Of a stretch of 64,000 bases of DNA, positions 7,047-21,831 are shown piece by piece (positions within the stretch are counted from its first letter, which is position 1; each line of letters begins with the position of its first letter). The DNA lies in IMG/VR virus record IMGVR_UViG_3300024331_000152, positions 32,001 through 96,000 of that record; one strand, written 5' to 3'. This stretch comes from a virus (Duplodnaviria > Caudoviricetes). The translations under genes were made by a program, and so were the position numbers. The notes under the pieces are model-generated. The model worked only from the letters and a program-made list of their open reading frames with translations, was not told the origin of the DNA and made no database searches.

Positions 7047-8276
7047 CTATCGAGCGGCATGGATACCGTCCTTAATCCACTTCTGCCAGCGCGGCCAGAG
7101 CTGTTTCCAATCGAGGTGATCAGGCAGCACAGTACGCGTCTTTGTCTTGATGATGTCATCTGCTGCTGCTGCCCAAATATGAGGATCGTAAACGGGCCGC
7201 TTGCACCCATACAGCCCTTCGTAACGATAGGTCTGCGTGCCGACAAAATGCCCACCACCGTTCTCTGGCGCGCCGCCATAGTTCGCGGCAACACAAGGCG
7301 TGCCGCAAGCGACCGATTCGAAGATCGGGAATCCGAAACCTTCACCTAACCCGATTCCAAACGTGAGGTCGCATGCGCTGTAGGCGATTGCCAAATTTAC
7401 TTCACTTAGCTCGCCGGAAAGCAGCGTGTCTTTGTCGAGACCGTAATCGATCAGTAGTGAAGGGATCGACCAATAGCGTTCCAACGCGTCGGTGTGTATC
7501 CAGAGTCTGATTTTGTGGCCGTTGCGCTTTAAGATCGATGCTGTCTCCAACGCTAATGCGTAGTCTTTCCGATGCTGGTTCGTTGCGACGATGCCGATCA
7601 GCACCTCATCCTGCGCGATACTCTTCTGCACGCCGTAGATCGAGGTTGAGCCCGTCTTAGCAAGGAACTGCTTGCGACAGAGAGATTGATTCGTCGGGAA
7701 GAAGACGCTCGTATCGATGCCATGCGGCAGGTAATCGAGATCCCTGACGTTGTTCTCCAGTGAATTAGCACAGATATTTTGTGCCCACGACGAGTAGGCG
7801 AGTAGGCGATCAAAACCTGCAAGAGACTTCCGCAGAGGGAACGTCAGTTTGTCGTTCGGACCTGTTGCATCGATTGGAAGGTAGGCCCAGCGTTTGAAGG
7901 GCTTTTGAAGAAGAAATTTCTGGAGCTGTGGAAACACAGCGAGCTGCGGGGCTCTGTCTGGGATCGCGAGCCACATCAGGCGCGACAGATCCCAGACAGA
8001 CATCAAGATTCCGTGTTCACCTTGCGCGAAATCGTCCCATACTACCGGCAATGATGGCAGTATAAATTCGGTTGAAACAGGCTCCTTCTCCATCGTGTAT
8101 TGCTCGAAGCCGAGATGACGAGAGTGTGGTGCGCCCCATCCATACGTGCCGACGCGGATAATGTCGGACATGTGCTCGTGAATCCCTTTGGCGATTTGTA
8201 GTGTGATTCGTGCAAGCCCGGTCGGCGCAGTGATTGCATCGGACACGAGCAACATGGGTACTGTTTTGACGGCCAT
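7047..8276 (-). CDS. Glycosyltransferase family 4 (GT-B fold)
   Basis: PTGLAR, LPHGIDTSVF, NQHRKDY, EGFGFPIFESVACGTPCVA (ExxxxxxxE motif). Confidence 0.85.
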   Translation of the reverse strand: MAVKTVPMLLVSDAITAPTGLARITLQIAKGIHEHMSDIIRVGTYGWGAPHSRHLGFEQYTMEKEPVSTEFILPSLPVVWDDFAQGEHGILMSVWDLSRLMWLAIPDRAPQLAVFPQLQKFLLQKPFKRWAYLPIDATGPNDKLTFPLRKSLAGFDRLLAYSSWAQNICANSLENNVRDLDYLPHGIDTSVFFPTNQSLCRKQFLAKTGSTSIYGVQKSIAQDEVLIGIVATNQHRKDYALALETASILKRNGHKIRLWIHTDALERYWSIPSLLIDYGLDKDTLLSGELSEVNLAIAYSACDLTFGIGLGEGFGFPIFESVACGTPCVAANYGGAPENGGGHFVGTQTYRYEGLYGCKRPVYDPHIWAAAADDIIKTKTRTVLPDHLDWKQLWPRWQKWIKDGIHAAR

Positions 8277-8315
8277 GTCGCCGAGAATATCAGGAAGCGC
8301 AGAGTTTGGCGAGTG

Positions 8316-8747
8316 TTATTCTTGGCACTCTTCCACAGTGATCAGAGCATGTGGCGTCTCGTGATAATCCTTCGAAACCTGTGCGCGTACCACCTGACAA
8401 TCATCTGTCCAGAGAATACCTTTCAATGCATCGAGACATGATCGCATCAGCTTGTCTTCATCGGGCTTGACAACGGGGTATAGCCGGTCCTTCGGAGCGA
8501 ACTTCGGTCGTGCAAAATAGAAGCGCAGAGTTATCGATACCGGAGCTTCTTTAGGAAAAGGAATCGTATTAAATCCAGCATCAACGCGCGCACGAAGCGC
8601 AGCCCATCCGACCTCTTGGCGGAATGGCATTGTGTTAGTGTTGTCGGATTTGACGAAGGCTTTGCCCGTACGATTCGAGATAATTGCGCGCATGCTCCCT
8701 TGCGGAGCTGGTGTGCCGAGCACGGTAAATGATATCCGTGGTCCCAT
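8316..8747 (-). CDS. rusA: RusA-family Holliday junction resolvase
   Basis: GTPAPQGS and KPDEDKLMRSCLDALKGILWTDDCQVV catalytic motif. Confidence 0.85.
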   Translation of the reverse strand: MGPRISFTVLGTPAPQGSMRAIISNRTGKAFVKSDNTNTMPFRQEVGWAALRARVDAGFNTIPFPKEAPVSITLRFYFARPKFAPKDRLYPVVKPDEDKLMRSCLDALKGILWTDDCQVVRAQVSKDYHETPHALITVEECQE

Positions 8748-8883
8748 TGTCCAGAATCTGGATTATTTCACAAGAGAGGCTCCGACATCCCTGCGCTCCG
8801 GCTTCCCCAACCCAAGCGGGAGCCCCTCTTGCATGAGCGACAATATCAAATTGCATTCGTGAAATCTATATCAAAAAACATGC

Positions 8884-9048
8884 TTGACACTCTGCCGGAA
8901 TCATGGAATGATTCATTCCGTGATGAAGTTCTTAGCTCTCAGTTCGCTCTCTCTGTATTGCCTGTCATCGGCAGGCATGGGGGCGTCTATGTAAGCGCGA
9001 GCTTCAGTAGACTTGGCAACTGCCCCCGGCTAACCGCTGGGGGTTTTT
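8884..9048 (+). promoter_or_regulatory. Promoter, leader peptide and attenuator of tRNA operon 1
   Basis: TTGACA-17-AATGAT; uORF 8923-8994 MKFLALSSLSLYCLSSAGMGASM; terminator GCCCCCGGC/GCTGGGGGT+T4 (9022-9048); antiterminator GGGGGC 8979-8984. Confidence 0.8.
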
Positions 9049-9052
9049 ATTT

Positions 9053-9129
9053 GCGCGCGTACGCCAACGGAAGAGCGAATCGCCTTAAAAGCGATTGGTT
9101 GATGGGTTCGAATCCCTCGGCGCGCACCA
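9053..9129 (+). tRNA. tRNA-Leu(TAA), short variable loop
   Basis: Cloverleaf, ATCGC-CTTAAAA-GCGAT, CCA end. Confidence 0.85.
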
Positions 9130-9131
9130 AT

Positions 9132-9207
9132 GTACCGGAAGGTAAAGGCTGGAACCAGCGGTCCGCAAAACCGCTTTTAGCGAGTTGAACTCTCGCCCGG
9201 TACTCCA
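9132..9207 (+). tRNA. tRNA-Cys(GCA)
   Basis: GCGGT-CCGCAAA-ACCGC, U73, CCA. Confidence 0.85.
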
Positions 9208-9217
9208 ATTTTGAAGT

Positions 9218-9294
9218 GCTCCGGTAGCCCAAAGGCAGGAGGCGCACGGTTCAGGTTCGTGACAGTGTGGGTTCGAATCCCACCCGGAGTACCA
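9218..9294 (+). tRNA. tRNA-Leu(CAG), short variable loop
   Basis: CACGG-TTCAGGT-TCGTG, TTCGAAT T-loop, CCA. Confidence 0.85.
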
Positions 9295-9297
9295 AGT

Positions 9298-9376
9298 GCA
9301 CGAGTAGCCCAACTAGGTAGGAGGCACACGCTTGAGGGGCGTGGCAGTATGGGTTCGAATCCCATCTCGTGTACCA
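9298..9376 (+). tRNA. tRNA-Leu(GAG), short variable loop
   Basis: CACGC-TTGAGGG-GCGTG, CCA. Confidence 0.85.
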
Positions 9377-9387
9377 AATTTAAATGT

Positions 9388-9466
9388 GCCTGCGTAGCCC
9401 AATTAGGTAGGAGGCGTCTGGCTTAGAACCAGAACAGTATGGGTTCGAATCCCTTCGCAGGTACCA
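9388..9466 (+). tRNA. tRNA-Leu(TAG), short variable loop
   Basis: TCTGG-CTTAGAA-CCAGA, CCA. Confidence 0.85.
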
Positions 9467-9467
9467 T

Positions 9468-9546
9468 GCCCTCGTAGCCCAACTAGGCAGGAGGCACTTC
9501 ATTCAAAACGAAGTCAGTGTCGGTTCGAATCCGACCGAGGGCACCA
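9468..9546 (+). tRNA. tRNA-Leu(CAA), short variable loop
   Basis: CTTCA-TTCAAAA-CGAAG, CCA. Confidence 0.85.
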
Positions 9547-9555
9547 AGTTTTAAC

Positions 9556-9648
9556 GGAGCGTTGGCTGAGTCTGGTTTAAGGCACCTCACTGCTAACGAG
9601 GCGTGACTGTAAAAGGCACCGTGCGTTCGAATCGCACACGCTCCGCCA
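9556..9648 (+). tRNA. tRNA-Ser(GCT)
   Basis: CTGCTAA loop, long variable arm, G73 CCA. Confidence 0.85.
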
Positions 9649-9655
9649 TTTGAAC

Positions 9656-9743
9656 GGATGAGTGAGCGGAATGGTATCGCCCTGCGTTGGAAGCGCAGCT
9701 CACGTGAAAGCGTGTGCAGGTTCGAGTCCTGTCTCATCCGCCA
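9656..9743 (+). tRNA. tRNA-Ser(GGA)
   Basis: CTGCG-TTGGAAG-CGCAG, long variable arm. Confidence 0.85.
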
Positions 9744-9744
9744 T

Positions 9745-9832
9745 GGAAGCACTGGGCATGTGGAGAGCCCACCCGCCTCGAAAGCGGACGTACCGCAAGG
9801 TACTGAGTGTTCGACTCACTCTGCTTCCGCCA
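9745..9832 (+). tRNA. tRNA-Ser(CGA)
   Basis: CCGC-CTCGAAA-GCGG, long variable arm. Confidence 0.85.
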
Positions 9833-9836
9833 GTTT

Positions 9837-9924
9837 GGGTGTGTGGGCGAGCGCTTTAAGCCTCTGGCCTTGAAAGCCAGCGTACCGAAAGGTACCGTGG
9901 GTTGGAATCCCACCGCACCCGCCA
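9837..9924 (+). tRNA. tRNA-Ser(TGA)
   Basis: CTGGC-CTTGAAA-GCCAG, long variable arm. Confidence 0.85.
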
Positions 9925-9930
9925 TGTTGT

Positions 9931-10019
9931 GCAGGCGTCGTGTCTACTGGAAGACCAAGCGGGCTGTAAACTCGCTGCTCCTTCGAGCTATGGGGGTTCG
10001 ATTCCCTCCGCCTGCACCA
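9931..10019 (+). tRNA. tRNA-Tyr(GTA)
   Basis: GCGGG-CTGTAAA-CTCGC, long variable arm, CCA. Confidence 0.85.
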
Positions 10020-10467
10020 TTTACTTCACGTCTGAGTTGTACCAGCGGATCAGTTTCTTGAACAGGCTAAGCCTGAGAACGAGCAGGCAGTCGGCGCGTT
10101 GTTTCCATGGTCTCAGAACCACGGTGTAAGGCATCTTTCTGTAGACTGTTTTTCCGCCTTTTATTGAGCCGCAATGCCCAACAACTTCGACTGTCCACGT
10201 GCCTAGCCTAGCGCCCGAAGACTGTTTTGGATCTAGCGTGGATACGTCAAACGAATCGACGAACGTCACCGCTTTCCGAAAATCTTTGATCGGTATTGTG
10301 ATGTCGGCACGAGAGAGACCGGTAGACACCATAAATCCGATATTAGTTCCGCTGAACCATATTCTCGCCTCAAGCTCTGGCACTTCGAAGACGGCCACGT
10401 TTACATCCCAATTACCTTCATTTAAATCGCGAGGTTTCATGACGAGAGTATATGCTAAACTGCGCGC

Positions 10468-10731
10468 ATGCCGATCCAGCGCAAGCATGCTGTGTTCTAC
10501 ATCCCTCACACCGGGCTCTACTATACCGGAGCTGGGGAGTTCCTCGACGGCAAAGGCGAAAAAATCAAGTGGGATCGTTCGATCACGGTCTACAATACTC
10601 ATGCCAGAGCCGAGCGAGCCAGAAATAGAATCCTGCAACATAATCCGTTACAGTACGCTCGCGGCGAACTGGTGGTGATCAACGTCGAGATCATCGAAAA
10701 AGAGGATGAGGTAGGAGATGGCTTTCGATAA
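10468..10731 (+). CDS. Hypothetical protein (probably leaderless mRNA)
   Basis: Preceded by TGCTAAACT-GCGCGC-ATG promoter motif. Confidence 0.6.
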   Translation: MPIQRKHAVFYIPHTGLYYTGAGEFLDGKGEKIKWDRSITVYNTHARAERARNRILQHNPLQYARGELVVINVEIIEKEDEVGDGFR

Positions 10732-10933
10732 CGGCTGGCCGAAGCATGTAGTGAATGGCGTCAGATATTCTGTCCATAACGAAGGTGAGTTCAACGGCAC
10801 GACGACGTGGATGGTAAAGCGCTACAACAACCCGAACGATGACGGCAATTACGTTGAGTGTCTGTTCTCTAGCGTCACGAAGGATGAGCTGATAGCGATC
10901 CAGCAGGCGATCAATACCGGATCGTGGGGATGA
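10718..10933 (+). CDS. Hypothetical protein
   Basis: GAGGTAGGAG RBS, coupled to upstream ORF. Confidence 0.55.
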   Translation: MAFDNGWPKHVVNGVRYSVHNEGEFNGTTTWMVKRYNNPNDDGNYVECLFSSVTKDELIAIQQAINTGSWG

Positions 10934-10954
10934 CCGCAGAAGAACTGCGGGACT

Positions 10955-12310
10955 TTAGAACCCGCGCACTTGTGATGCAGGAGCAGCAATATCTCGCGCT
11001 GGCATTTGAGGCGGCAAAGGCGGGGCATTTGCGGCTTTGCGATGAACTCTATCGCTGGGCTGCTGACCGTCATCAGAATCTACAACTTTATCTCGGATTG
11101 GTTCCCGACCAAACAGAAGCGCCTGCGCATCGGCAATAGTCGCCTTTTCGGGAAGCTGGCTGCGAAAATCGTCGTAATTCGAAATAGAGAAAACTTCTTT
11201 TGCTCGCTGGTGAAACCGGCGCAACTCTTCCTCGCGCGCCCAAGTAATATGAAACTCGCGGTCGATTCTTCCCTTGCGCACAAGAGCTGAATCGAGTCTC
11301 TCGCGATGATTCGTAGTGATAATCAGCAATCGTCCCTCGGTTGCAACTACGCCGTCGATCACATTCAGCAGATCCGAAGCGACGATTCCTTTGGTTACCT
11401 CGTCGCCGTCTTTGTCGAATTTGCGCTCCCGGGCGGCAGGCACGCAGTCCACATCCTCGATGAGCAGGATCGACCGATTACAAACGGTATTGATGAGCCT
11501 CTGTAGATCTTCAGAACGTTCAACGCCAGCGACGTTGAGGTAATAAAGTGGAAGCTCTAAATGCGTGGCAAGCGCTTGCACTAAGGATGATTTTCCTGTT
11601 CCCGGAGGACCATAGAAGCAGAAGCCGCGCCGCCATGGGATACCGAGCATTCGGTACTTGTCTTTGATCGACAAAAATTGCTCAATGTCGGTGACAATGG
11701 ATTCTATTTCACCGGCAGGCAGATAGATCGTATCGAGAGAGCGCGGCGACAACTCGCGGCTATCCCACCAGCTCCCTTCGTTGCGGTAGATGAAGAGTTT
11801 CTTTTCGAGTTGGGCATAGAACTCGGCCCGGGCCTCGTCAAGTAAATCAGTGATGATTTGGCGATCCAGCGTTCCCCAGATCGACACTTGGATCGTGCGG
11901 CGCGGACGGAATAGAGACGTCGCACCTTCAGCTATCGCCCCCGGCGTTCCCGGGGCAGAGGCTTCCTTATCGGATGTAAAAATTAGGAGATACCGCTGCT
12001 TGAAGCGCAGATAATAGGTTCCGTAGCGCGGGATCGTTTGATAGTCCATGCCGTCGATGGTGCGCTTGCGCCGGAGCATGAGATCTGTGATGCGCTTCTC
12101 GCGAATACGCTTTTCGGCCCATAGAGCAATCCACATGTAGGCTTCTTCGGTCTCATGCTCTTCGACCGCAACGGCGACATGCAGCTTTCGGAGGAAGTAG
12201 CCAATCGAATAGTTGTAGACGAGAGACCAGAAGTTTCGGAGCCAGCCCAGAGCTACTCCGCCCACCACGAGCAGCCATGGCGAGTCTTTCATCAGTTTTT
12301 GCCAATCCAT
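10955..12310 (-). CDS. BCS1-like membrane-anchored AAA+ ATPase
   Basis: N-terminal TM, GIPWRRGFCFYGPPGTGKSS Walker A, ILLIEDVD Walker B, TTNHRERLDSALVRKGRID. Confidence 0.9.
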   Translation of the reverse strand: MDWQKLMKDSPWLLVVGGVALGWLRNFWSLVYNYSIGYFLRKLHVAVAVEEHETEEAYMWIALWAEKRIREKRITDLMLRRKRTIDGMDYQTIPRYGTYYLRFKQRYLLIFTSDKEASAPGTPGAIAEGATSLFRPRRTIQVSIWGTLDRQIITDLLDEARAEFYAQLEKKLFIYRNEGSWWDSRELSPRSLDTIYLPAGEIESIVTDIEQFLSIKDKYRMLGIPWRRGFCFYGPPGTGKSSLVQALATHLELPLYYLNVAGVERSEDLQRLINTVCNRSILLIEDVDCVPAARERKFDKDGDEVTKGIVASDLLNVIDGVVATEGRLLIITTNHRERLDSALVRKGRIDREFHITWAREEELRRFHQRAKEVFSISNYDDFRSQLPEKATIADAQALLFGREPIRDKVVDSDDGQQPSDRVHRKAANAPPLPPQMPARDIAAPASQVRGF

Positions 12311-12420
12311 TCCGAAATAATAGCGCAGATTTTCCAGAATCTGGAAACGATGCTAAAGTGGTGAGCATTCCGTGGTTCCGGCAACACGTTAAGCAACCGG
12401 AAAATCTGAAAGGTAATCTG

Positions 12421-12858
12421 ATGAATACAAAAGCTACGGCTGGTGTAGATATTTCCGCGTCATCTCCCTCTACAACATTCAGCACGAATGGCCCGGTATC
12501 GAGTTCGGCATCGTCTTTCGATGTTGCTGAAGACTTTCCAATGATCCCACTGCTTGCAAGACCAGAATATGTGCCAGTAGTAACGCACATCGTGAATGCA
12601 AATGTGATACCTAATCTGCGCGTCCTTCTCGCATCAGCGCTGGGTGCTATCGATGCAGCAATCCCAAACAAGGACCAAAATCGTGCGGTGCGGCATATTG
12701 TTCGTACTCAATTCGACGCCGCCTATGCTGATATCTTGCAACGCGCATACCCGACGTGCCAGTTCGGATGGGAAAGCTGTTATGCGGTCGAGCCGGAATT
12801 ATCTCGGTCGAAAGCTTTCAGCGGTCTGACAGTGAGTGCCGGGTCTCCTTCAAAATAA
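12421..12858 (+). CDS. Hypothetical protein
   Basis: Long ORF, start MNTKAT after AAAGGT. Confidence 0.5.
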   Translation: MNTKATAGVDISASSPSTTFSTNGPVSSSASSFDVAEDFPMIPLLARPEYVPVVTHIVNANVIPNLRVLLASALGAIDAAIPNKDQNRAVRHIVRTQFDAAYADILQRAYPTCQFGWESCYAVEPELSRSKAFSGLTVSAGSPSK

Positions 12859-12895
12859 TTTGCGAGCTTAGTGAAACCTGTGGTATTTTAGAGTT

Positions 12896-12970
12896 CGCGG
12901 TCGAGTGGATGGGTCCCACGATGCCCTCATAAGGCATAGATTGCAGGTTCGAACCCTGTGACCGCAACCA
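12896..12970 (+). tRNA. tRNA-Met(CAT), initiator-like
   Basis: ATGCC-CTCATAA-GGCAT, C1:A72 mismatch, CCA. Confidence 0.8.
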
Positions 12971-12980
12971 ATTGACTGGA

Positions 12981-13210
12981 ATCCTCGGGGCAGCGTTGAA
13001 GCGTTACTAGTACGTGGAGCTTGGTAGAGATTCGCCTTGCAGTATCGTCCCCGATAGGGCAAGGATGTGAGGCCGTCACAACTGGAGAGAGAACCGCCGA
13101 TCTCTGACAACGGCTCAGCGGTGACGCTCAGGAGAGACTGAGGATCTTCAAGGAGGACCCGGCATGACGCTTGATTACCGAGATTGCGAATCGCGAGAGT
13201 CGGTCCTCGA
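12981..13210 (+). ncRNA. Candidate structured ncRNA between tRNAs
   Basis: No credible ORF; ATCCTCGG(12981)/CTGAGGAT(13138) closing helix, CCTTGC/GCAAGG and GAGGACC/GGTCCTC helices. Confidence 0.45.
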
Positions 13211-13216
13211 ATCTTT

Positions 13217-13291
13217 GGCTGTGTAGCTCAACCAGAGCACCCGTCTTCAAAACGGTAGGTTGCAGGTATACAACCCCTGTCACAGCCACCA
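13217..13291 (+). tRNA. tRNA with UCA anticodon (UGA-reading; atypical T-loop)
   Basis: CCGT-CTTCAAA-ACGG, acceptor GGCTGTG/CACAGCC, ACCA. Confidence 0.65.
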
Positions 13292-13314
13292 ATTCTCTCG
13301 ACAAAATTTCAAAC

Positions 13315-13390
13315 GGGGTAGTAGCATAGCGGCTAATGCACTTGATTGTCGATCAAGCCATCGCGGGTTCGAGTCCCGTCTGCCCCGCCA
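13315..13390 (+). tRNA. tRNA-Asp(GTC)
   Basis: CTTGA-TTGTCGA-TCAAG, G73 CCA. Confidence 0.85.
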
Positions 13391-13408
13391 TAATTTTCAG
13401 GAGATTCT

Positions 13409-13621
13409 GTGAGCAAGTGGAGCCCAGTAGGTGAAAACGAAACCGGCTTCACTGAAGGTGGAGACCACGGAGAATTCAACTGTGGAAACTGTGTTCACAT
13501 GAAGGATGGCTGCACGCATCCGATCATGAAGGCGATCTCGCAGCGGCCTCGCAAAAAGAACGGAAACGTTGAGGTAGACGAAGATGACTGCTGCACGTTC
13601 GTACGCAGACCGGGAGACTAG
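13409..13621 (+). CDS. Small Cys-rich protein (HiPIP-like cysteine pattern)
   Basis: CGNCVHM..C...VDEDDCC; AGGAG RBS. Confidence 0.45.
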   Translation: MSKWSPVGENETGFTEGGDHGEFNCGNCVHMKDGCTHPIMKAISQRPRKKNGNVEVDEDDCCTFVRRPGD

Positions 13622-14140
13622 ATGATCTGTCCTGATTGCGACAAAGCGGAGATGGTCGAGACTGAAGTGACGCGCGACTTTAAAGTCGGTCGCAAGGAAC
13701 CTGTCACGTTGTCGGCTACGGCGGTAGTTGAGATCTGCCCAGCGTGTAAGTGTGAACTGCACGGCTGGCAGATGGAGAGAGCGAAGTCGCTCGCGATGTC
13801 TAAATGGATGAAGGAAAACCACAGGGTTGACATTAACCCGCCAGAAGATTTGCGGATCGCTCACGCGGCGTCATCGTTTCACCTCAAACAGCTTGAGCAT
13901 GAAGGTAAGGCAGCATGTTTCTATTGCCTACGTTTCTTCAACATCGAGGAGATTGAGGACTGGATCGACAATGAGCAGACGGCGCTCTGTCCGAAGTGTG
14001 GTATTGACTCCGTGATTCCAGAGACGGACAATGTAACACCAGAGTTCCTAAAGCGCATGCAGCAATATTGGTTTGATGCAGGCGCAGACCTTGCAAAGAA
14101 AGATTGTCAGGAGCCTGCTCCTGCAATGCCGGGAACGTAA
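13622..14140 (+). CDS. Double zinc-ribbon protein
   Basis: CPDC..CPAC N-terminal ribbon plus ACFYC...TALCPKCGIDSVI domain. Confidence 0.6.
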   Translation: MICPDCDKAEMVETEVTRDFKVGRKEPVTLSATAVVEICPACKCELHGWQMERAKSLAMSKWMKENHRVDINPPEDLRIAHAASSFHLKQLEHEGKAACFYCLRFFNIEEIEDWIDNEQTALCPKCGIDSVIPETDNVTPEFLKRMQQYWFDAGADLAKKDCQEPAPAMPGT

Positions 14141-14418
14141 TGATGGATAGCGTTCAGGACTGACCTTGCCATCCAACTAACCTTTGGAGATAAAACCCAA
14201 TGGAAGTCAAACGGAAAGAAATTGAAACGCTGATCGAAAAGTCAGCTAAAAGCACACGATTCTGGAGACGCTATGCGTTTTTCTCAGGCGGCATGTAATT
14301 GTGCAAATGCCATACGCTGCTTGCTCGACGCAGAACTCGAACAAGCTTGTTCCGGCCCGAAGTAGACCGGTGGTTGCACCCCGCCTCGCCGCGAGGCTAA
14401 GTCGCGGCAGAGATTTAA

Positions 14419-14735
14419 GCATGTAGAAGGCAACTAATCAGATTTCGGACGTGGGTTCGAATCCCACCGAGTCCACCAATCAGCTAACGCGCCGGGGCGA
14501 AACGCCTTGGTTCAACGAAAGTTCAGCTAAGAGTTAAAGCTGGTCCGTTGGCTGATTTGTGGGCTCGCCAAGGTTTCGACGGGATCAGAAGACGTTGTGC
14601 AGTTCATGCCGAGTGCTGTGGCCTGCGTTAAGGGACACGGAAAAAACAAATGCAGATGCTTCGGCACTGCCGATGGCAGCCTAAAAACTGACGTCTGAGG
14701 GTGGCCGCAATACTCATCAAAGAACCATGCGGCAC
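14419..14735 (+). ncRNA. ssrA: Permuted (two-piece) tmRNA, tag (A)ADASALPMAA
   Basis: 3' acceptor piece TTTCGGACGTGGGTTCGAATCCCACCGAGTCCACCA (ends 14478) precedes 5' piece GGGCTCGCCAAGGTTTCGAC (14561); G3-U70; tag ORF 14652-14684; outer boundaries approximate. Confidence 0.85.
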
Positions 14736-14745
14736 AAATACGCTA

Positions 14746-15150
14746 ATGCCTTACAAAGACAAAATTAAGCGTGCAGAGTATTGGAGGAATTATGTAATTG
14801 CCAACCCTCACGTCAAAACCAGAACTAAGACCGACAGGAAGCGCGAGAACGGCGAGGGCTGGGAGATTAAGAACCGCATCCCCTTCAAGATCTCGTGCTG
14901 CGATTGTGGTCTCGTCCATAATCTGGTTATCGTAGCTCCGAATACGAGAAAGGGCGCAGTCCTTGGCATCGCTGCGGAACGAAACGAGCGCGCAACCGGA
15001 CAGAAGCGCAGACATTTAGTGACGAACAAGCCAGAGACGCCTGAGGAGGCGGCGCGCAGACTAGGCGTGTCGAAGAAACGTCTCGAATCAATTCGCGAAA
15101 TTATGTCGCGCCCTGTGTTACGCTCAAAGCGAAAACACTTGAATCCCTAA
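14746..15150 (+). CDS. Hypothetical protein with CCDCGLVH zinc motif
   Basis: FKISCCDCGLVH motif common in phage proteins. Confidence 0.6.
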   Translation: MPYKDKIKRAEYWRNYVIANPHVKTRTKTDRKRENGEGWEIKNRIPFKISCCDCGLVHNLVIVAPNTRKGAVLGIAAERNERATGQKRRHLVTNKPETPEEAARRLGVSKKRLESIREIMSRPVLRSKRKHLNP

Positions 15151-15222
15151 GGCGTTCAGACCGCGAATCTGAGCGTCTCTTTTTTTCTTGACAACAGGCG
15201 CAGAGTTTCGTACCTTCTGTTC

Positions 15223-15711
15223 ATGCATTGAATCGCCAACACGCATTCATACGTTTTCGTCCGGTACGATCTCTCCCTCGCACAATCTGTAATCCAGTCG
15301 AGCCATGCTACCCATTCGATGGCTAATGGGCTCTCCCAGAGCCCTGAAGTTCCGCATATCGTTCTGATCGGCGTTCCAGACGTCAAGGCCCTTGAACGGG
15401 TCATTCAAAAACTCCGCGACAATCACATTGAATTTGCTGCCTTCGATGAGCCTGACGATAATCTCGGCTTGACGGCGGTCGCTACTGTTCCTCTCAACGA
15501 AGAGCAGAGACTTGTGTTCCAGAACTACAAGATCTGGACTGAAGAAGAATACTTTTACACGCGCGTAGCTCAGTGGTCAGAGCACTCCGGGAGGTTGACG
15601 GAGAGGTCGGCTGTTCGAATCGGTCCGCGCGTACCATGGGCGGTTCATTCGGTGATGTATCCGGTTCGAATCCGGTATCGCCCACCATGCGCGGTTAGCT
15701 CGACTATGTAG
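15223..15711 (+). CDS. PTH2-like peptidyl-tRNA hydrolase with in-frame UGA at codon 3
   Basis: ATG CAT TGA then in-frame YVFVRYDLSLAQSVIQSSHA...IVLIGV...FDEPDDNLGLTAVAT; leaderless promoter TTGACA-17-TACCTT. Confidence 0.7.
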
Positions 15712-15737
15712 AGGGGAAGATCCTCGCCCGCGCTCCA
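15559..15737 (+). ncRNA. Three tandem tRNA-like elements with CCA ends (15559-15636, 15638-15687, 15689-15737)
   Basis: Acceptor stems plus CCA; first has a 9-nt anticodon loop, second is essentially acceptor plus T-arm, third is truncated. Confidence 0.65.
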
Positions 15738-15743
15738 ATTCGA

Positions 15744-15819
15744 GCGCTCGTGGCTCAGCGGCAGAGCGCCGGTCTTCAAAACCGGGTCAGCGTGGGTTCG
15801 AACCTCACCGAGCGCTCCA
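15744..15819 (+). tRNA. tRNA with UCA anticodon (UGA-reading), Gly-like acceptor
   Basis: CCGGT-CTTCAAA-ACCGG; G1-C72, C2-G71, G3-C70, U73; short variable loop. Confidence 0.8.
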
Positions 15820-15926
15820 CTGAAATTTGAGGTAATATATTTCTGCGCGCCGAGCGCGAGACCTGATCAGATCCGTCTCAACGGGCTGGCACGATGTCCA
15901 GCGCATCTAGCAAAAGGAGAATCAAG

Positions 15927-16277
15927 ATGCGTACTCGTTGCAAGTTCCGTGTTGTTGGAATTGAAGATGTTGATCACCAGATCCAGAAAAGGATCTACAA
16001 AGATCAGGTAAGCGCTGAGGAATATGCGGCAATCGAGAGTTCGGAATGGCCAGACCGTAATGGATTTGGGGATATCAGAATGTACAAACTCGTTGGCCTC
16101 GGCCATGCCCAGAACATCCGGCTCGCCGCTCAGTATGATCCATCAATCCCCGAAGATCAGCGCTTTATGGAAGCAACGCCGACTGGAGAGTTGAAGTTTT
16201 ACGTCAGCAACCCAGCAGTGATCGGCGGCTTTCAGATCGGCAAAAATTACTACATTGATCTGATACCATGTGGCTAG
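15927..16277 (+). CDS. Conserved phage hypothetical protein
   Basis: MRTRCKF...EDQRFMEATPTGELKFYVSNPAV..FQIGKNYYID; AAGGAG RBS. Confidence 0.65.
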   Translation: MRTRCKFRVVGIEDVDHQIQKRIYKDQVSAEEYAAIESSEWPDRNGFGDIRMYKLVGLGHAQNIRLAAQYDPSIPEDQRFMEATPTGELKFYVSNPAVIGGFQIGKNYYIDLIPCG

Positions 16278-16305
16278 CAGACCAGTGCCCGACCCTACAC
16301 AGGTC

Positions 16306-16338
16306 AAAAGGCCCATCCAGTTTCTGGACGGGCCTTTT
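16306..16338. terminator. Bidirectional intrinsic terminator between convergent genes
   Basis: AAAAGGCCC-ATCCAGTTTCTGGAC-GGGCCTTTT. Confidence 0.65.
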
Positions 16339-16690
16339 ACTTTACTCGTATCTTCGCTAGCGGTCCGGACGCAATACTCGTGTTCATTTGTCCAGCGATC
16401 ATCTGCTTGGTCTGCACGATGTAGCAGGCCGAGGAATTCTTCGGAATCGCATCAACGTATGCCAGTAGCGTGGTAGGAGATTGCGCGTTGAGCGGGGCGT
16501 AGTTTTTTGCGCTCGTAGCCGGACAGGTTGTTCCTGAGATCATCACACGGCTTACGATGTAGCTGCAAGCTGGCCACCCCGTACCGCAAGTGACAGGCAG
16601 TTGCCATGAGATCGTAACCTTGACGTTGGGCGGCGCGGCTGACGCGTACGTAAAGACGAAAACACCGATGAGAATGATCTTTCGCAGCAT
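16337..16690 (-). CDS. Secreted FN3-like small protein
   Basis: Signal peptide then VTISW..SYIVSR..LNAQSPT..YVD..CYIVQT. Confidence 0.55.
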   Translation of the reverse strand: MLRKIILIGVFVFTYASAAPPNVKVTISWQLPVTCGTGWPACSYIVSRVMISGTTCPATSAKNYAPLNAQSPTTLLAYVDAIPKNSSACYIVQTKQMIAGQMNTSIASGPLAKIRVK

Positions 16691-16843
16691 CGGGAACCCT
16701 CAGAAAATCGTCCAGATTCTGGACCGTGAGCGCAGTATAATACGAAAAGCCAACGGGGCGTCTCTCTAAAGTGGAGACGAATAGTATCAGGTCTTGCCGT
16801 CCGTGACCTGTTTCAAGGCAAATCAAATTGAGACAGGTGAAAA

Positions 16844-17320
16844 ATGGCAGGATACGTGTACCTTATCGGTACGCCAACGTTTCGTTGGTATAAAATCGGC
16901 AAATCCCGCGTTCCTGAGATCAGGATTCAAGATCTCGGAATTCTTCTCCCTTTTAAAATTGAAATTGTTGGTATCTGGAAAGCGCACGACCATACCGCTC
17001 TTGAGTCTCTACTACACGAGCGATACGCCGAAAGAAGAATAAACGGTGAGTGGTTTCACTTCTATCGCGCTGAGGTTATGGGGATATTCGCGTCCCTTCC
17101 TGAAGAAGCGAGGATATTTCCGTCTGGAAATTCCGATTCGTTTTTCGCTAAATTTTCGAACATCGAGCGAGATTGCCCGGAAGGCAAGAGACTTCATTTG
17201 TCTACTAGGAGGGTGCGTGGAAACTTTACAGATGAGCAGAGAGCCTACTTGCGACAAAAAGCGATAGAGGAGCATAAAAAGAAAAAAGCGCTACGGGATG
17301 CAAATAAGAGTATGCTTTAA
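16844..17320 (+). CDS. GIY-YIG (T5orf172-like) nuclease
   Basis: GYVYLI..YKIGKS..RIQDL...LESLLHERYAERRINGEWF. Confidence 0.8.
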   Translation: MAGYVYLIGTPTFRWYKIGKSRVPEIRIQDLGILLPFKIEIVGIWKAHDHTALESLLHERYAERRINGEWFHFYRAEVMGIFASLPEEARIFPSGNSDSFFAKFSNIERDCPEGKRLHLSTRRVRGNFTDEQRAYLRQKAIEEHKKKKALRDANKSML

Positions 17321-17402
17321 GCGTCGGGAAACCGACTATCCAGCAGGCTTGCAACGCGATTGTATGGGGCTTTAGTCTGCGGCCCGTTTCAAGGAGAACC
17401 AA

Positions 17403-18266
17403 ATGATGTATATCAAGCATTTCGTCCTCGCCGTGCGCGTCAACGGTAAAATCCTCAAAGAACATGACCAAGTTGTCCACCTCCCTTTCGGAGCTGAGTA
17501 TGAGCTGTTGCTCAAGAACCTCAACTCGCGCCGCGCGATGGTCGGTGTCTCCATTGACGGCAAGCGTACCAGTGATTGTCGTTTCGTAATTCCAGCTAAC
17601 TCGGAGAGCGTTCTTGAGCGCTACGTCAAAAACGGCAACATGGACTCCGGGAACCGCTTCAAGTTCATCGAACGCACCTCGGCAGTTGAAGAACATCGCG
17701 GAGTGGGATCGGACGACGGTATCGTGCGCGCCGAGTTTTGGGCAGAGCGAGAAGTTGTCACGCTTCCTCGCACAATCATCAATGATTCATGGCTTCCTTC
17801 ATCTCCGTATGATCGCAGGCGTCGCACGCTTGGAAATTCTGGAGGCTTTAGAAGTTTCAGCGGCATCACAGGACAAAGTGTTCCATCTGATGATGTGTCG
17901 TGCATGTACGGTAGTGTTCAAGGTGGAGCTGAGGCCCCGGGATCGAGCTTTAACGTAGGCTCGCTCAATGCGCAGGTGACATACACGTCATCGTTGGGCG
18001 CGGACATGTCGAAGATCGCAGATAACGACGCGGGCATCACCGTCCCGGGCAGCGAGTCGTCGCAGCGCTTCCACTGGACAAACGGCTTCGAGCTGGAGAG
18101 CACAAGCACCGTAATCATACTTCAGCTTCGTGGCGAGATCGGCGGACAGGCTGTTGCTGCGCCGGTCACGGTGGAGTATAAGCCTGTCTGCATCACCTGT
18201 GGCAAGACCAACAAGGGTACCAGCCGTTTCTGTGACCAGTGCGGAACGGCATTGCAAATTCTTTAA
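17403..18266 (+). CDS. Hypothetical protein with C-terminal zinc ribbon
   Basis: AAGGAG RBS; CITCG..SRFCDQCG. Confidence 0.65.
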   Translation: MMYIKHFVLAVRVNGKILKEHDQVVHLPFGAEYELLLKNLNSRRAMVGVSIDGKRTSDCRFVIPANSESVLERYVKNGNMDSGNRFKFIERTSAVEEHRGVGSDDGIVRAEFWAEREVVTLPRTIINDSWLPSSPYDRRRRTLGNSGGFRSFSGITGQSVPSDDVSCMYGSVQGGAEAPGSSFNVGSLNAQVTYTSSLGADMSKIADNDAGITVPGSESSQRFHWTNGFELESTSTVIILQLRGEIGGQAVAAPVTVEYKPVCITCGKTNKGTSRFCDQCGTALQIL

Positions 18267-18274
18267 ATAACCTC

Positions 18275-18467
18275 TTGCAATTTGCGCGCATCATAGGTTA
18301 AGGTAGGAAGCGTTATGAAACTCAACCGAGCCAATTCGAACCATTCGTTTAATCCAGCGGCACAACCGCAGGGTACAACGCGTGTGCGTGGCTCGGCCTG
18401 AACAGCATCCTTTAGCAATGCGATGCAGTACAGACCCCCGAGCCTAGATAATAGACTCGGGGGTTTT
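18275..18467 (+). promoter_or_regulatory. Promoter, leader peptide and attenuator of tRNA operon 2
   Basis: TTGCAA-18-TAAGGT; uORF 18315-18401 MKLNRANSNHSFNPAAQPQGTTRVRGSA; terminator ACCCCCGAG/CTCGGGGGT-TTT; GGCTCGG(18390) pairs CCGAGCC at 18326 or 18438. Confidence 0.8.
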
Positions 18468-18474
18468 GATTGGC

Positions 18475-18999
18475 ATGGGAAAGTGGCTGCATCGTGTTTC
18501 GAATATCGATTTTGATTCTCTCACTGGTGATTGCTCTACTTGTGGGCGCGTGAGATTGAAAGTAAAGAAAGGCGGCAGGAGATTTGCATGCGCTGTATCT
18601 GAGCAACGCTGGTGCGATGGACAAAGCGTATCAAAGAGAAGGGCTGCTCGCCGTAGACAAACTAGAAAGTTGCTCGCAAAGCTTCTATCTAGTGGATGTC
18701 GGATATGTCGAGTAGCCAAGAAAGGAATTCATTGTCATCATCTCGATAGTTCCACAAAGAGTTTCAATATTTCGCAAGGGTATACAGACTGTTCCAGAGA
18801 GCTGTTAATTGCCGAGCTGAAAAAATGTATTGCCGTGTGTCAGCAATGCCATACAAAGATTCACTTCAGGCAGTTTGTAGTATCTGAGGATTTGATTTCT
18901 GAGTGGAATAGAGATGTAGATGTTTTATTCACGCGTAGCTCAATGGTAGAGCCCTGCACTGTTAATGCAGTCATTGGGGGTTCGATTCCCTCCGCGTGA
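18475..18999 (+). CDS. HNH endonuclease
   Basis: GCRIC..IHCHHLD..K.FNISQ..AELKKCIAVCQQCH; 3' end runs into tRNA-Asn. Confidence 0.75.
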   Translation: MGKWLHRVSNIDFDSLTGDCSTCGRVRLKVKKGGRRFACAVSEQRWCDGQSVSKRRAARRRQTRKLLAKLLSSGCRICRVAKKGIHCHHLDSSTKSFNISQGYTDCSRELLIAELKKCIAVCQQCHTKIHFRQFVVSEDLISEWNRDVDVLFTRSSMVEPCTVNAVIGGSIPSA

Positions 19000-19003
19000 G
19001 CCA
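18929..19003 (+). tRNA. tRNA-Asn(GTT)
   Basis: CTGCA-CTGTTAA-TGCAG, CCA. Confidence 0.85.
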
Positions 19004-19010
19004 AATTAGT

Positions 19011-19084
19011 TGCGTCTTCGTTCAGTGGCAGGACGGTTGACTCTGAATCAACACACGGGAGTTCGATTCTCTCAGACGCAGCCA
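19011..19084 (+). tRNA. tRNA-Gln(CTG)
   Basis: GTTGA-CTCTGAA-TCAAC, CCA. Confidence 0.85.
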
Positions 19085-19092
19085 AATTTTGT

Positions 19093-19168
19093 TGGGAGAT
19101 GGCCGAGCGGCGTAGGCACGAGCCTTTGGATCTCGTACAGGCTGGTTCAACTCCAGCTCTCCCAGCCA
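19093..19168 (+). tRNA. tRNA-Gln(TTG)
   Basis: CTTTGGA loop, U1-A72, CCA. Confidence 0.85.
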
Positions 19169-19169
19169 T

Positions 19170-19245
19170 GCGGATGTAGTTCAATTGGCAGAACGTTGGA
19201 GTGCCACTCCAAAGGTTGCCGGATCGTTGCCGGTCATCCGCTCCA
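19170..19245 (+). tRNA. tRNA-Gly(GCC)
   Basis: TTGGA-GTGCCAC-TCCAA, U73 CCA. Confidence 0.8.
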
Positions 19246-19282
19246 GTTTGAGGTGAGAGGAATGCATTGAATTGATGATGAC

Positions 19283-19358
19283 GCTGCCGTAGCTCAAGTG
19301 GTAGAGCACCTGTCTCGTAAACAGGAGGTTGGGACTTCGAGTGTCCCCGGTAGCTCCA
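19283..19358 (+). tRNA. tRNA-Thr(CGT)
   Basis: CCTGT-CTCGTAA-ACAGG, CCA. Confidence 0.85.
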
Positions 19359-19378
19359 GTTTTCCCTGAGGTGATCTT

Positions 19379-19915
19379 ATGATCCGTAGAACAGTTTTGA
19401 TGCTGAACGCGAGCTACGAACCGCTGCGGATCATCAGCGCAAAGAAGTCCCTGACACTCTTAACCAAGGGTGTTGCCGTGGTGGAGGTACCAACCAAGAT
19501 CCAAGTCCACGCGGGGATCTACTTGCCGAGTGTTATTCGGTTGCGTCATTTCCGCAACGTGCCGCACAAGAGGCCAGTGCCGTCGAGAAAGAACATCTTC
19601 ACCAGAGACGGTTTTCGCTGCTTGTATTGCGGTGCCAAGGCTCCGAAAGTAGTGCTCGAACTTGAGCACATCGTTCCGAGATCGAGAGGCGGAGCAAACG
19701 CTTGGGACAACCTTTGTGCATCTTGTCACGATTGCAACCAGAAGAAGCGTGACAGGACTCCGGAGGAAGCAGGCATGAAGTTGATTCACAGACCTCTGCC
19801 CGCGACCGTACACACCGGCAGGTTCGTCTTGAAGACGATGGGTAACGAAATTGCAGAGTGGGGTCCGTTTCTATGGAAGGACTCTAAGGGCGAACAGAAG
19901 TTGCAGTTCGCATAA
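19379..19915 (+). CDS. HNH endonuclease
   Basis: [56 protein letters not shown]. Confidence 0.9.
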
Positions 19916-19975
19916 CAAGAAATAGCGCCGGGTTATGGATTGACAATTAAGCTCCGTGTGAAATAAAACGGTCTA

Positions 19976-20368
19976 ATGCCATACAGTGACCCGGCGAAAC
20001 AAAAAGAAGCTCTTCGGCGATGGTATCGCAGAGTTGTTCGTAAAAGACGCACAGATTGGTTTAAAGGAAAGCAATGTGCGACTTGTGGAAGTACGCGAAG
20101 ACTTGAATTGGATCATGTTGATCCAGCGCTGAAGGTGGATCATAAAATTTGGTCATGGAGCGAGAAAAGACGCACTGAAGAGCTTAATAAATGTGTTCCA
20201 CGGTGTAGAACTTGTCACATCGAGAGATCGGCAGAGCAACAACGAAAGCCATTGGTTCACGGAACGCGCGATGGATATATGTGGCATCGTTGTCGCTGTA
20301 GGGAATGCGTTAAAGCTGCGTCGCTCTACCGTAATGAGCAGCGACGTTTGAAGGGACGAAAGAATTAA
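19976..20368 (+). CDS. HNH endonuclease
   Basis: CATCGS..LELDHVDP..EELNKCVPRCRTCH, HGT..Y..CRCREC. Confidence 0.8.
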   Translation: MPYSDPAKQKEALRRWYRRVVRKRRTDWFKGKQCATCGSTRRLELDHVDPALKVDHKIWSWSEKRRTEELNKCVPRCRTCHIERSAEQQRKPLVHGTRDGYMWHRCRCRECVKAASLYRNEQRRLKGRKN

Positions 20369-20369
20369 A

Positions 20370-20444
20370 GCACTCGAAGCATAGTCGGAGATGCCCTCGG
20401 CTTGTATCCGAGAGAACAGAGTTCGAATCTCTGCGAGTGCTCCA
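20370..20444 (+). tRNA. tRNA-Thr(TGT)
   Basis: CTCGG-CTTGTAT-CCGAG, CCA. Confidence 0.85.
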
Positions 20445-20510
20445 AAGATGTCGGATGTGGCCCCGAGTTCGAGGAGGAATAGGCGAGAGCTTATCGGGGC
20501 TCAGGTTTAT

Positions 20511-20586
20511 GGAGCTATTGGCCGAGCGGTTTAGGCGCGGGACTGTGACCCCCGACACGAGTGTTCAACTCACTCATAGCTCCCCA
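20511..20586 (+). tRNA. tRNA-His(GTG)
   Basis: CTGTGAC loop, G-1:C73. Confidence 0.85.
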
Positions 20587-20590
20587 ATTT

Positions 20591-20665
20591 GGGGCTGTAG
20601 TGCTAATGGGAACACACTGGTTTTGCACTCCAGAGTTGAGAGTTCGATTCTCTCCAGCTCCACCA
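20591..20665 (+). tRNA. tRNA-Ala(TGC)
   Basis: G3-U70, TTTGCAC loop, CCA. Confidence 0.85.
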
Positions 20666-20699
20666 AATTTACGCAGGCGCTGAGCCCTCTCTGTTCTAT

Positions 20700-20862
20700 A
20701 CGTGACACGCTCAGGGAAGAAGATCAAAGGTGTCGCGTATATGCTCGCTTTTGGTTACAACCTTGAAAGAATTAAGGCAGAAATCGCAAAATGCGTCGTA
20801 CGCTGCGCGAACTGTCACCGCCGCCGAACGGCGAAGGTTTTAGGAAATTGGAAGTTGCACCA
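20700..20862 (+). pseudogene. Remnant of an HNH endonuclease
   Basis: Frame reading LERIKAEIAKCVVRCANCHRRRTAK with no N-terminal half. Confidence 0.6.
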
Positions 20863-20863
20863 T

Positions 20864-20940
20864 CAGGGCGTAGCCTAGCGGCTTCAGGCACTCGCTTCGG
20901 GAGCGAGATGACGTGAGTTCGAATCTCACCGCCCCGACCA
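20864..20940 (+). tRNA. tRNA-Pro(CGG)
   Basis: CTCGC-TTCGGGA-GCGAG, CCA. Confidence 0.85.
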
Positions 20941-20986
20941 TTTTAACGAGCCGGTTTTCATTAAAGAAATCGGCTGAAAATTTTAA

Positions 20987-21064
20987 CCGGGTTTAGCCTA
21001 GTCTGGCTCAGGCACCTGCTTTGGGAGCAGGACGACGGGGGTTCAAATCCCTCAGCCCGGACCA
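20987..21064 (+). tRNA. tRNA-Pro(TGG)
   Basis: CCTGC-TTTGGGA-GCAGG, CCA. Confidence 0.85.
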
Positions 21065-21065
21065 T

Positions 21066-21154
21066 GCACCCGTAGCCTAGCGGATTCAGGTAACGGTCTA
21101 CGAAACCGTCGAGGGAAACCTCTTACGCAGGTTCGATTCCTGCCGGGTGCTCCA
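21066..21154 (+). tRNA. tRNA-Arg(ACG) with long variable arm
   Basis: ACGGT-CTACGAA-ACCGT, GAGG-GAAA-CCTC extra arm. Confidence 0.8.
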
Positions 21155-21169
21155 TAATTGTAAGTGTTC

Positions 21170-21224
21170 GGCGCGGTGAGGCTGGGCGTGGCACGGTGAG
21201 GTTTGGTTCGGTATGGTTTGGCAT
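21170..21224 (+). repeat. GGY-NN pentamer mini-array (11 perfect units), putative guide RNA
   Basis: GGCGC GGTGA GGCTG GGCGT GGCAC GGTGA GGTTT GGTTC GGTAT GGTTT GGCAT. Confidence 0.85.
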
Positions 21225-21250
21225 TCTTGCCATGAGGAGGGTTATGCGAA

Positions 21251-21655
21251 TTGAAAAGGACATTTGGTCAGCGAGCTGCTGACTGGGTTACTGAAGCAAG
21301 TGGTAGCTGGCCGTTCATTCTGTGGTCAGTTGTTCTTGGCGTACTCTGGGTCTTGTCGAATGTGAGCAAGGTCCTTGTCTTCGATCCGTATCCTTTCCTG
21401 TTTTTGAACTGGGTGCTGACTGTGATCAGCACGTTGCAATCCCCGCTCATCATGCTGTCGCAGAATCGGCAGAATGAAACTGATCGCGAGCGCGTAGATA
21501 TGATCGTCCAGAAGCTGGACGATCATATCCGGGAAATTAAATTGCGCGCATGGCGAAGTTGTGGTAGGGTAGTCAAGTTGGGCTCAGGCCCGAGATTGAT
21601 CTTTGAAATCAAGTTTCCGTGGGTTGTAAACATGGATGGCCTTAAAAGATCCTGA
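21251..21655 (+). CDS. DUF1003-family membrane protein
   Basis: TFGQRAADWV..GSWPFI, FDPYPFLFLN..LQSPLIMLSQNRQ..DR. Confidence 0.85.
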   Translation: MKRTFGQRAADWVTEASGSWPFILWSVVLGVLWVLSNVSKVLVFDPYPFLFLNWVLTVISTLQSPLIMLSQNRQNETDRERVDMIVQKLDDHIREIKLRAWRSCGRVVKLGSGPRLIFEIKFPWVVNMDGLKRS

Positions 21656-21830
21656 CGTTAGGTTAGGCTCCGAAGCGTCCGGTCCACGGGATCAAGTTTC
21701 CGCTGACAGTGTTGCTTACATGGCAGGGTAACCTGCATTTCACTACGAATGAAAAACCGGGGCAACCCGGGTGTACCCGAAAGGGTTGCAGCACGACACC
21801 AGCGGAGAAAGTTTGGGTTGACTTGTTTGC
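21550..21830 (+). ncRNA. Candidate structured ncRNA
   Basis: Follows TAAATT-GCGCGC promoter motif; nested helices AGTCAA/TTGACT, TTCCGTGG/CCACGGGA, TCCGCTG/CAGCGGA, GNRA hairpins. Confidence 0.45.
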
Positions 21831-21831
21831 A

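Follow-up and report, generated by a model that had tools for sequence, protein, structure and literature searches.

We analysed a 64,000-nucleotide (nt) stretch of viral DNA, hereafter the window, which comprises bases 32001-96000 of the 142,794-bp IMG/VR virus record IMGVR_UViG_3300024331_000152, rated complete. The window has a G+C content of 0.53, and its plus strand carries 35 transfer RNA (tRNA) genes and a permuted transfer-messenger RNA (tmRNA) between 9053 and 24596, as identified by ARAGORN. The element under study is the leader of the tRNA operon at the start of this array, which encodes eleven tRNAs for Leu, Ser, Cys and Tyr. The leader consists of a promoter, a short open reading frame (ORF) rich in codons that the downstream tRNAs read, and an intrinsic terminator placed directly before the first tRNA gene. 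The features of the locus are as follows, with the segments of the RNA numbered as in classical attenuators:

8316-8747, minus strand: RusA gene, divergent from the tRNA operon
8884-8912, plus strand: promoter, with a perfect -35 hexamer (8884-8889), a 17-nt spacer containing TG at 8904-8905, and a -10 hexamer (8907-8912)
8923-8994, plus strand: leader ORF of 23 codons plus stop, near-leaderless, with its ATG 10 nt past the -10 hexamer
8932-8970, plus strand: sensor window, codons 4-16 of the ORF, with Leu, Ser, Tyr or Cys at 12 of 13 positions
8945-8951, plus strand: segment 1, a pyrimidine run within the sensor codons, paired with segment 2 when the full-length RNA is folded free of ribosomes
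8959-8977, plus strand: internal hairpin of 8 bp within the ORF (-11.9 kcal/mol), a possible RNA polymerase pause hairpin
8975-8990, plus strand: segment 2, the 5' strand of the antiterminator, made of the G-run and the bases that follow it in the last ORF codons
9007-9012, plus strand: 3' strand of the inner helix of the antiterminator
9022-9030, plus strand: segment 3, the 5' strand of the terminator and alternative partner of segment 2
9022-9052, plus strand: intrinsic terminator, with stem 9022-9030 / 9036-9044, loop 9031-9035 and a T-run to 9052
9053-10019, plus strand: tRNA operon of 11 genes (five Leu, Cys, four Ser, Tyr) with spacers of 1-11 nt, in the order Leu(taa), Cys(gca), Leu(cag), Leu(gag), Leu(tag), Leu(caa), Ser(gct), Ser(gga), Ser(cga), Ser(tga), Tyr(gta)

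The promoter is the top sigma-70-type match in 8000-25500, agreeing with the consensus at 10/12 positions (4/6 in the -10 hexamer) and featuring an extended -10 TG. No plus strand gene was found upstream of the leader, where RusA is encoded on the other strand, and therefore the terminator ends nothing but the small ORF. This terminator is the top match of its kind in the region, with a stem of 9 pairs at 9022-9044, 7 of them G-C, and a predicted stability of -17.8 kcal/mol. Only 8 nt separate the end of the stem from the first tRNA, as the T-run ends at 9052 and the tRNA starts at 9053, and no further plus strand promoter match was found after the terminator. The 8-nt gap and the 1-11-nt spacers leave no room for a promoter belonging to the array itself, and transcription of the tRNAs must therefore cross the terminator.

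ARAGORN identified the five Leu, four Ser and Tyr genes at default settings. The Cys(gca) gene (9132-9207) was called at a relaxed threshold only, but it folds as a cloverleaf, and the tRNA at the corresponding array position in a related contig, L004 (described below), is Cys(gca) at default settings. An earlier reading of this DNA from its letters alone, hereafter the sequence-only reading, had proposed an attenuator here: a near-leaderless upstream ORF at 8923-8994 with a 23-residue peptide and a particular list of codons, a terminator after it, and an operon of 5 Leu, 4 Ser, Cys and Tyr tRNAs. Our annotation agrees with each of these elements, and the spacing of 10 nt between the -10 hexamer and the ATG makes near-leaderless a fair description.

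The codons of the leader ORF match the content of the operon. The tRNAs of the operon read 13 of the 22 codons after the start, against a background of 19.3% in the long ORFs of the phage (binomial P = 4e-5). To place this value, we compared the leader with every ORF of 15-40 codons that opens with ATG in any of the six frames of the 143-kb genome (n = 1,299), among which it ranks 1 and is the sole ORF to reach that share of cognate codons. It samples 10 of the 11 anticodons of the operon, where random expectation averages 4.1 (P = 0.001), while mononucleotide shuffling of the leader gave a mean of 7.2 matches (P = 0.004). Matches in the three frames number 13/10/7, with the ORF frame given first. 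The codons after codon 16 are fixed by RNA pairing. According to the sequence-only reading, TTG and CTA are the only cognate codons that the leader does not sample; this holds when each tRNA is represented by the Watson-Crick codon of its anticodon, but once U34 wobble is allowed only the caa tRNA is left unsampled.

The window contains two further leader ORFs, 22509-22577 and 18315-18401, each of which matches its own tRNA block. The corresponding modules of leader ORF and terminator span 22509-22625 and 18315-18464, and the blocks that they precede differ in content, one encoding Trp/Met/Ile/Lys/Arg/Val/Thr/Gly tRNAs and the other Asn/Gln/Gly/Thr/His/Ala/Pro/Arg tRNAs. When the codons of the three leaders were scored against each of the three tRNA blocks, the resulting matrix (13/3/4, 4/18/2, 2/2/15) was diagonal, and this specificity of leader for operon is the strongest control on the codon match. 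Each leader samples 10-11 of the 11 anticodons of its own block. All three place the ATG 10 nt past the -10 hexamer, and in all three the 5' strand of the antiterminator is formed by the last codons or the stop region. The match of each of the other two leaders to its own tRNA block bears out the view of the sequence-only reading that the Leu/Ser/Cys/Tyr leader is an independent instance of a shared design with an unrelated peptide; the peptides of those two leaders are hydrophilic. Both have the same 19-nt promoter block, identical at 18274-18292 and 22468-22486 and different from the promoter of the Leu/Ser operon, which possibly places them in a different temporal class.

Folding of the leader RNA in silico gave alternative structures. 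The minimum-energy fold of 8920-9052 (-54.3 kcal/mol, z = -3.9) combines the terminator with a 1:2 pairing of 8945-8951 with the G-run at 8979-8985, and the composite structure at 8943-8987 amounts to -19.3 kcal/mol. The sequence-only reading had also suggested that the end of the ORF can pair with downstream bases so as to block the terminator. This antiterminator, in which 8975-8990 pairs with 9007-9012 and 9022-9030, emerged as the minimum-energy fold of 8975-9030 (-25.7 kcal/mol) and is mutually exclusive with the terminator. Folded at equilibrium, the full transcript gives the terminator wherever the ribosome is placed, so the effect of a ribosome was modelled on a transcript that ends at 9033, short of the terminator's 3' strand. 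The ribosome footprint was assumed to extend from -15 to +13 nt relative to the A-site codon. In this constrained folding in silico, the 5' strand of the terminator was sequestered with a probability of 0.86-0.97 when the A site was at codons 1-15, and sequestration fell to 0.24-0.49 with the A site at codons 16 to stop, which is the switch expected of an attenuator; folding with footprint constraints was the check proposed in the sequence-only reading. A scan of the leader against Rfam, at the gathering threshold and with E up to 1, matched no family, T-box included. A T-box riboswitch was accordingly considered and rejected, as no T-box model matched the leader.

The design is conserved in a relative. 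L004 is a 3.3-kb Logan contig from a soil metagenome whose RusA homologue is 78% identical to that of the window. On the strand opposite RusA, it carries the same -35 hexamer and extended -10 TG, with an ATG 9 nt past the -10 hexamer and an ORF that is also 23 codons long, its length, start and stop positions being as in the window. The terminator that follows has a different sequence from that of the window and is again succeeded by a T-run. ARAGORN made eight tRNA calls on this contig, Leu(taa), Cys, Leu(gag), Leu(cag), Leu(tag), Leu(caa), Ser(gct) and Ser(cga), with an HNH-like ORF between Leu(cag) and Leu(tag). Ser(tga) and Tyr were read by eye and Ser(gga) was deduced from a gap in the array, which gives the same tRNA set as in the window, in an order that is alike except that Leu(gag) and Leu(cag) are swapped.

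Comparison of the two leaders showed that the codons have diverged within the set read by the operon. The ORFs differ at 23 of 72 nt, with 59% identity across codons 2-18 and 89% from codon 19 to the stop. Sixteen of the 22 codons of the L004 leader fall in the tRNA set, whereas simulated neutral divergence with an equal number of changes retained 8.0 +/- 1.9 (P for 16 or more = 6e-5); by frame, the L004 matches number 16/8/6. Among the replacements, Ser takes the place of Leu and Leu that of Ser at fixed positions, and CTA and TTG, both missing from the leader in the window, are present. The Tyr-Cys pair and the seven C-terminal residues are nearly invariant between the two leaders.

The RNA elements of the switch are likewise retained in L004. 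All pairs of the internal hairpin are kept, with one compensatory change at 8962/8974 from C:G to U:A, while all three loop bases differ. A 14-nt core of segment 2 is invariant. In the antiterminator, the pairing of G-run with C-run is retained and the inner helices are different. Constrained folding repeats the switch, with a sequestration probability of 0.85 at codons 1-15 and of 0.34-0.45 beyond. L004 also features two ORFs that are found at neither place in the window's operon, the HNH-like ORF between Leu(cag) and Leu(tag) and a 177-residue ORF between RusA and the leader promoter (717-1268 and 1755-2288, respectively); as both are absent from the window, they represent insertion polymorphisms.

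Two shorter metagenome contigs carry variants of the leader region. In a soil run (X2), a 211-nt contig at 3x depth carries a leader variant, closer to the window than that of L004, in which all 11 substitutions fall in 8922-8973 and none in 8974-9055. Past the same terminator, this contig continues into a different, Leu-like tRNA start. A further metagenome contig (X4) has only 9006-9058 in common with the window. The junctions of X2 and X4 within 8891-9058 suggest that leaders and tRNA genes may be exchanged as modules among related soil phages. Other routes to relatives were less productive. Searches of IMG/VR with the glycosyltransferase and AAA ATPase proteins of the phage returned no relatives, and exact or degenerate patterns of the leader, promoter and terminator had no matches in IMG/VR and JGI metagenomes. 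Two pattern matches in a genome collection lacked tRNAs and were rejected as chance. Among more distant RusA homologues, none of P0005, P0008, P0010 and P0013 adjoins a tRNA array. For cultured phages, brief inspection of where the tRNA genes lie in T5 and in Bacillus phage P59 gave no convincing module of leader ORF plus terminator.

We consider it likely that the element is a multivalent, ribosome-mediated leader-peptide transcription attenuator that provides demand-driven tRNA synthesis for the phage operon, and in this model the phage probably does not make these tRNAs unless ribosomes are slow to decode the codons concerned. Five hallmarks of a leader-peptide attenuator were found in silico: a promoter-proximal ORF, matched codons, a terminator before the genes, an exclusive antiterminator and a dependence on ribosome position. 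Every in silico test that was run (codon specificity, forced crossing of the terminator, constrained folding and comparison with L004) agrees with, and supports, the attenuator advanced by the sequence-only reading.

For the mechanism itself, we infer where transcription starts, that the ORF is translated, that ribosome and polymerase are coupled, how efficient termination is and how the element responds to tRNA supply. The start of transcription would lie a few bases upstream of the ATG (8923), and the nascent 5' end would take up a ribosome. Fast decoding of codons 4-16 would bring the ribosome to the last codons or the stop, where it would cover segment 2 (8975-8990). With segment 2 masked, the terminator hairpin (9022-9044) would form and transcription would stop at the T-run, 1 nt short of the first tRNA. 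If any of about ten tRNA species were scarce or uncharged, the ribosome would instead linger in the sensor window and leave segment 2 available for pairing with segment 3, the terminator's 5' strand, so that polymerase would read through and all eleven tRNAs would be made. RNase P would then remove the leader. Since a tRNA made in this way would relieve the stall, the circuit would amount to negative feedback that supplies exactly the tRNAs that the leader samples.

Several observations weigh against this interpretation. The pyrimidine-rich composition of the leader explains part of the codon match, as the +1 frame reaches 10/22 and the P value from shuffling is only 0.004, and individual tRNAs are sampled by merely one or two codons. 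The leader ORF has no Shine-Dalgarno sequence, so its translation depends on leaderless or near-leaderless initiation from the predicted start site; from such predicted start sites, a 5' untranslated region of 2-4 nt is common to four leaders. The N-terminus of the peptide resembles a signal peptide. At equilibrium, the complete transcript forms the terminator whatever the position of the ribosome, and therefore the choice between structures must be kinetic, as is the decision in the trp leader. The ribosome-free truncated transcript prefers the antiterminator in the window (0.83) and is about evenly divided in L004 (~0.5), so a super-attenuation like that of trp may be absent. Finally, the X2 contig (3x) has two offsetting 1-nt indels in the ORF which, if real, would shift about eight codons and lower the match.

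Some of these points would sit comfortably with an element that works through RNA only, by fixed partial read-through or in response to a protein or RNA factor, or with an ORF that senses translation in general. The pyrimidine run would then serve to pair with the G-run and encode Leu and Ser only by coincidence; the C/U run of segment 1 is indeed complementary to the G-run, the off-frame match of 10/22 is an effect of composition, and the terminator is always formed in equilibrium folding. We nevertheless regard this explanation as unlikely. The in-frame match lies above both other frames, clearly so in L004 (16/8/6), and Tyr and Cys codons and six types of Ser/Leu codon outside the C/U run match too. 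Moreover, L004 keeps the ORF open at the same length, the three-by-three matrix of leaders and operons is diagonal, and the leader resembles none of the RNA families in Rfam, the T-box among them. The resemblance to a signal peptide raises another prospect, that the product of the ORF is a small peptide, hydrophobic or signal-like, which has a function and is expressed from a promoter and terminator of its own; the array would be transcribed by leaky read-through, and the codon match would be a by-product of a hydrophobic, Leu/Ser-rich composition. The peptide does begin with Met-Lys followed by a Leu/Ala/Ser-rich stretch, and its Tyr-Cys pair and last seven residues are nearly invariant in L004. 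However, this conserved C-terminal part coincides with the antiterminator strand, and the radical Leu-Ser swaps between the two phages speak against selection for the chemistry of the peptide. Both other leaders match their own blocks although they are hydrophilic, no lipobox was found by inspection, and the tRNA array has no promoter of its own. A peptide of this kind therefore appears quite improbable.

It might also be that an incidental small ORF lies by chance beside an ordinary terminator, in a genome where small ORFs abound (1,299 with 15-40 codons). We find this barely credible for an ORF that ranks first among those 1,299, that is one of three matched instances in one genome, and whose divergence in L004 preserved the codon set (P = 6e-5). 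Each of these three rivals is weakened by the diagonal matrix, by the excess of matches in frame, by the swaps between Leu and Ser, and by divergence that stayed within the codon set; the RNA-only element and the signal-like peptide retain a small probability.

As a textbook mechanism, attenuation by leader peptides is known from amino-acid biosynthesis genes and one synthetase but, to our knowledge, not from tRNA genes. A search of the full-text literature did not find attenuation of tRNA genes described, in phages or elsewhere, and the literature on known phage tRNA clusters did not yield a description of a codon-matched leader ORF plus terminator. Multivalent attenuators are familiar from enterobacteria, where the ilvGMEDA leader senses Leu/Val/Ile and thrL senses Thr/Ile, alongside trpL, hisL, leuL and pheL. 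The phage element shares with the ilv and thr type a promoter-proximal short ORF that is rich in the codons to be sensed, the proposed sensing of more than one amino acid, predicted exclusive 1:2, 2:3 and 3:4 hairpins, a terminator before the regulated genes, and the predicted masking of segment 2 by a ribosome at the stop. Unlike these systems, it is encoded by a phage, has a near-leaderless start with no Shine-Dalgarno sequence, and would regulate tRNAs rather than biosynthetic enzymes, so that the product would act directly on the sensor. It also samples about ten isoacceptors, which belong to four amino acids, through one or two codons apiece instead of runs of codons, and its leader ends 1 nt before a tRNA, where RNase P would cleave it off.

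Two other systems invite comparison. The pheST attenuator, with its pheM leader, controls the phenylalanyl-tRNA synthetase of Escherichia coli, and thus, as proposed for the phage element, subjects a component of the translation apparatus to leader-peptide attenuation that responds to the supply of charged tRNA; unlike the phage element, it controls a synthetase, senses a single amino acid and belongs to a host gene. In T-box riboswitches, as proposed here, tRNA status governs the decision between terminator and antiterminator, but a T-box binds the uncharged tRNA directly, through a specifier loop and the T-box sequence, and does so without translation. We know of no T-box upstream of tRNA genes.

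Why phages carry tRNAs and when these are expressed has been debated for decades. For the tRNA clusters of T4, T5 and mycobacteriophages, codon compensation or evasion of tRNA-cleaving defences has been proposed (PMC10264068, PMC11555353), and phage tRNAs are known to counter defences that target tRNAs (PMC10264068, PMC11555353). The array studied here resembles such clusters in that its tRNA genes are interspersed with HNH endonuclease genes, and in that the tRNAs are proposed to keep translation going where those of the host do not suit the phage or have been destroyed. A codon-matched attenuator would make the expression of phage tRNAs demand-driven and specific to each block, would link them mechanistically to codon mismatch or to host defences that cleave tRNAs, and would supply compact natural sensors of decoding speed for chosen codons. 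Likely uses are the compensation of an unsuitable host tRNA pool and the replacement of tRNAs destroyed in infection, including by tRNA-targeting defences.

We lean, with some reserve, towards a more general proposal, in which phages with large tRNA sets would run each block as a self-regulating circuit. A near-leaderless ORF would sample the codons of its own block, and the terminator would open only as ribosomes slowed on them. The phage would in this way detect a host tRNA pool that is mismatched or is being destroyed (by anticodon nucleases or other tRNA-targeting defences) and would replace exactly the missing species. If true, tRNA genes would be shown for the first time to be under leader-peptide attenuation, and counter-defence based on tRNAs would gain a sensor arm.

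DNA near-identical to the window is present in one soil metagenome, with partial look-alikes in further soil and rhizosphere runs; no RNA run was among the listed holders in a look-up of sequencing runs for the stretch. Among isolated phages, the closest terminase is 28% identical and belongs to phages of the acidobacterium Tunturiibacter, and a comparison with isolated phages gave only scattered tRNA matches and no relative. A RusA protein identical to that of the window is also on record on a 153,726-bp contig, and a longer assembly than the 142,794-bp record therefore probably exists.

Further observations concern the tRNA array and its genes. The phage-encoded tmRNA lies at 14386-14775 and is of the permuted, two-piece type (Rfam RF04321, 78 bits), with a tag peptide predicted by ARAGORN, and an HNH endonuclease gene (19379-19915) lies inside the array. 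ARAGORN at default settings misses four tRNA-like genes: Trp(cca) at 22647-22712, which is called at a relaxed threshold only; a tRNA-like gene with no assigned identity between Arg(cct) and Val, at 23586-23662; a 49-bit Rfam tRNA match at 13217-13288; and a partial tRNA match at 21838-21898. In the Leu/Ser/Cys/Tyr operon, the tRNA-Cys(gca) (9132-9207) has C33 rather than the near-universal U33 and a non-canonical T loop, while its L004 counterpart has U33. All five Leu tRNAs (9053-9546) are just 77-79 nt long, which is short for class II Leu tRNAs with a long variable arm. With its class II tRNAs (Leu, Ser and Tyr) and Cys, the operon covers most of the T row of the codon table.

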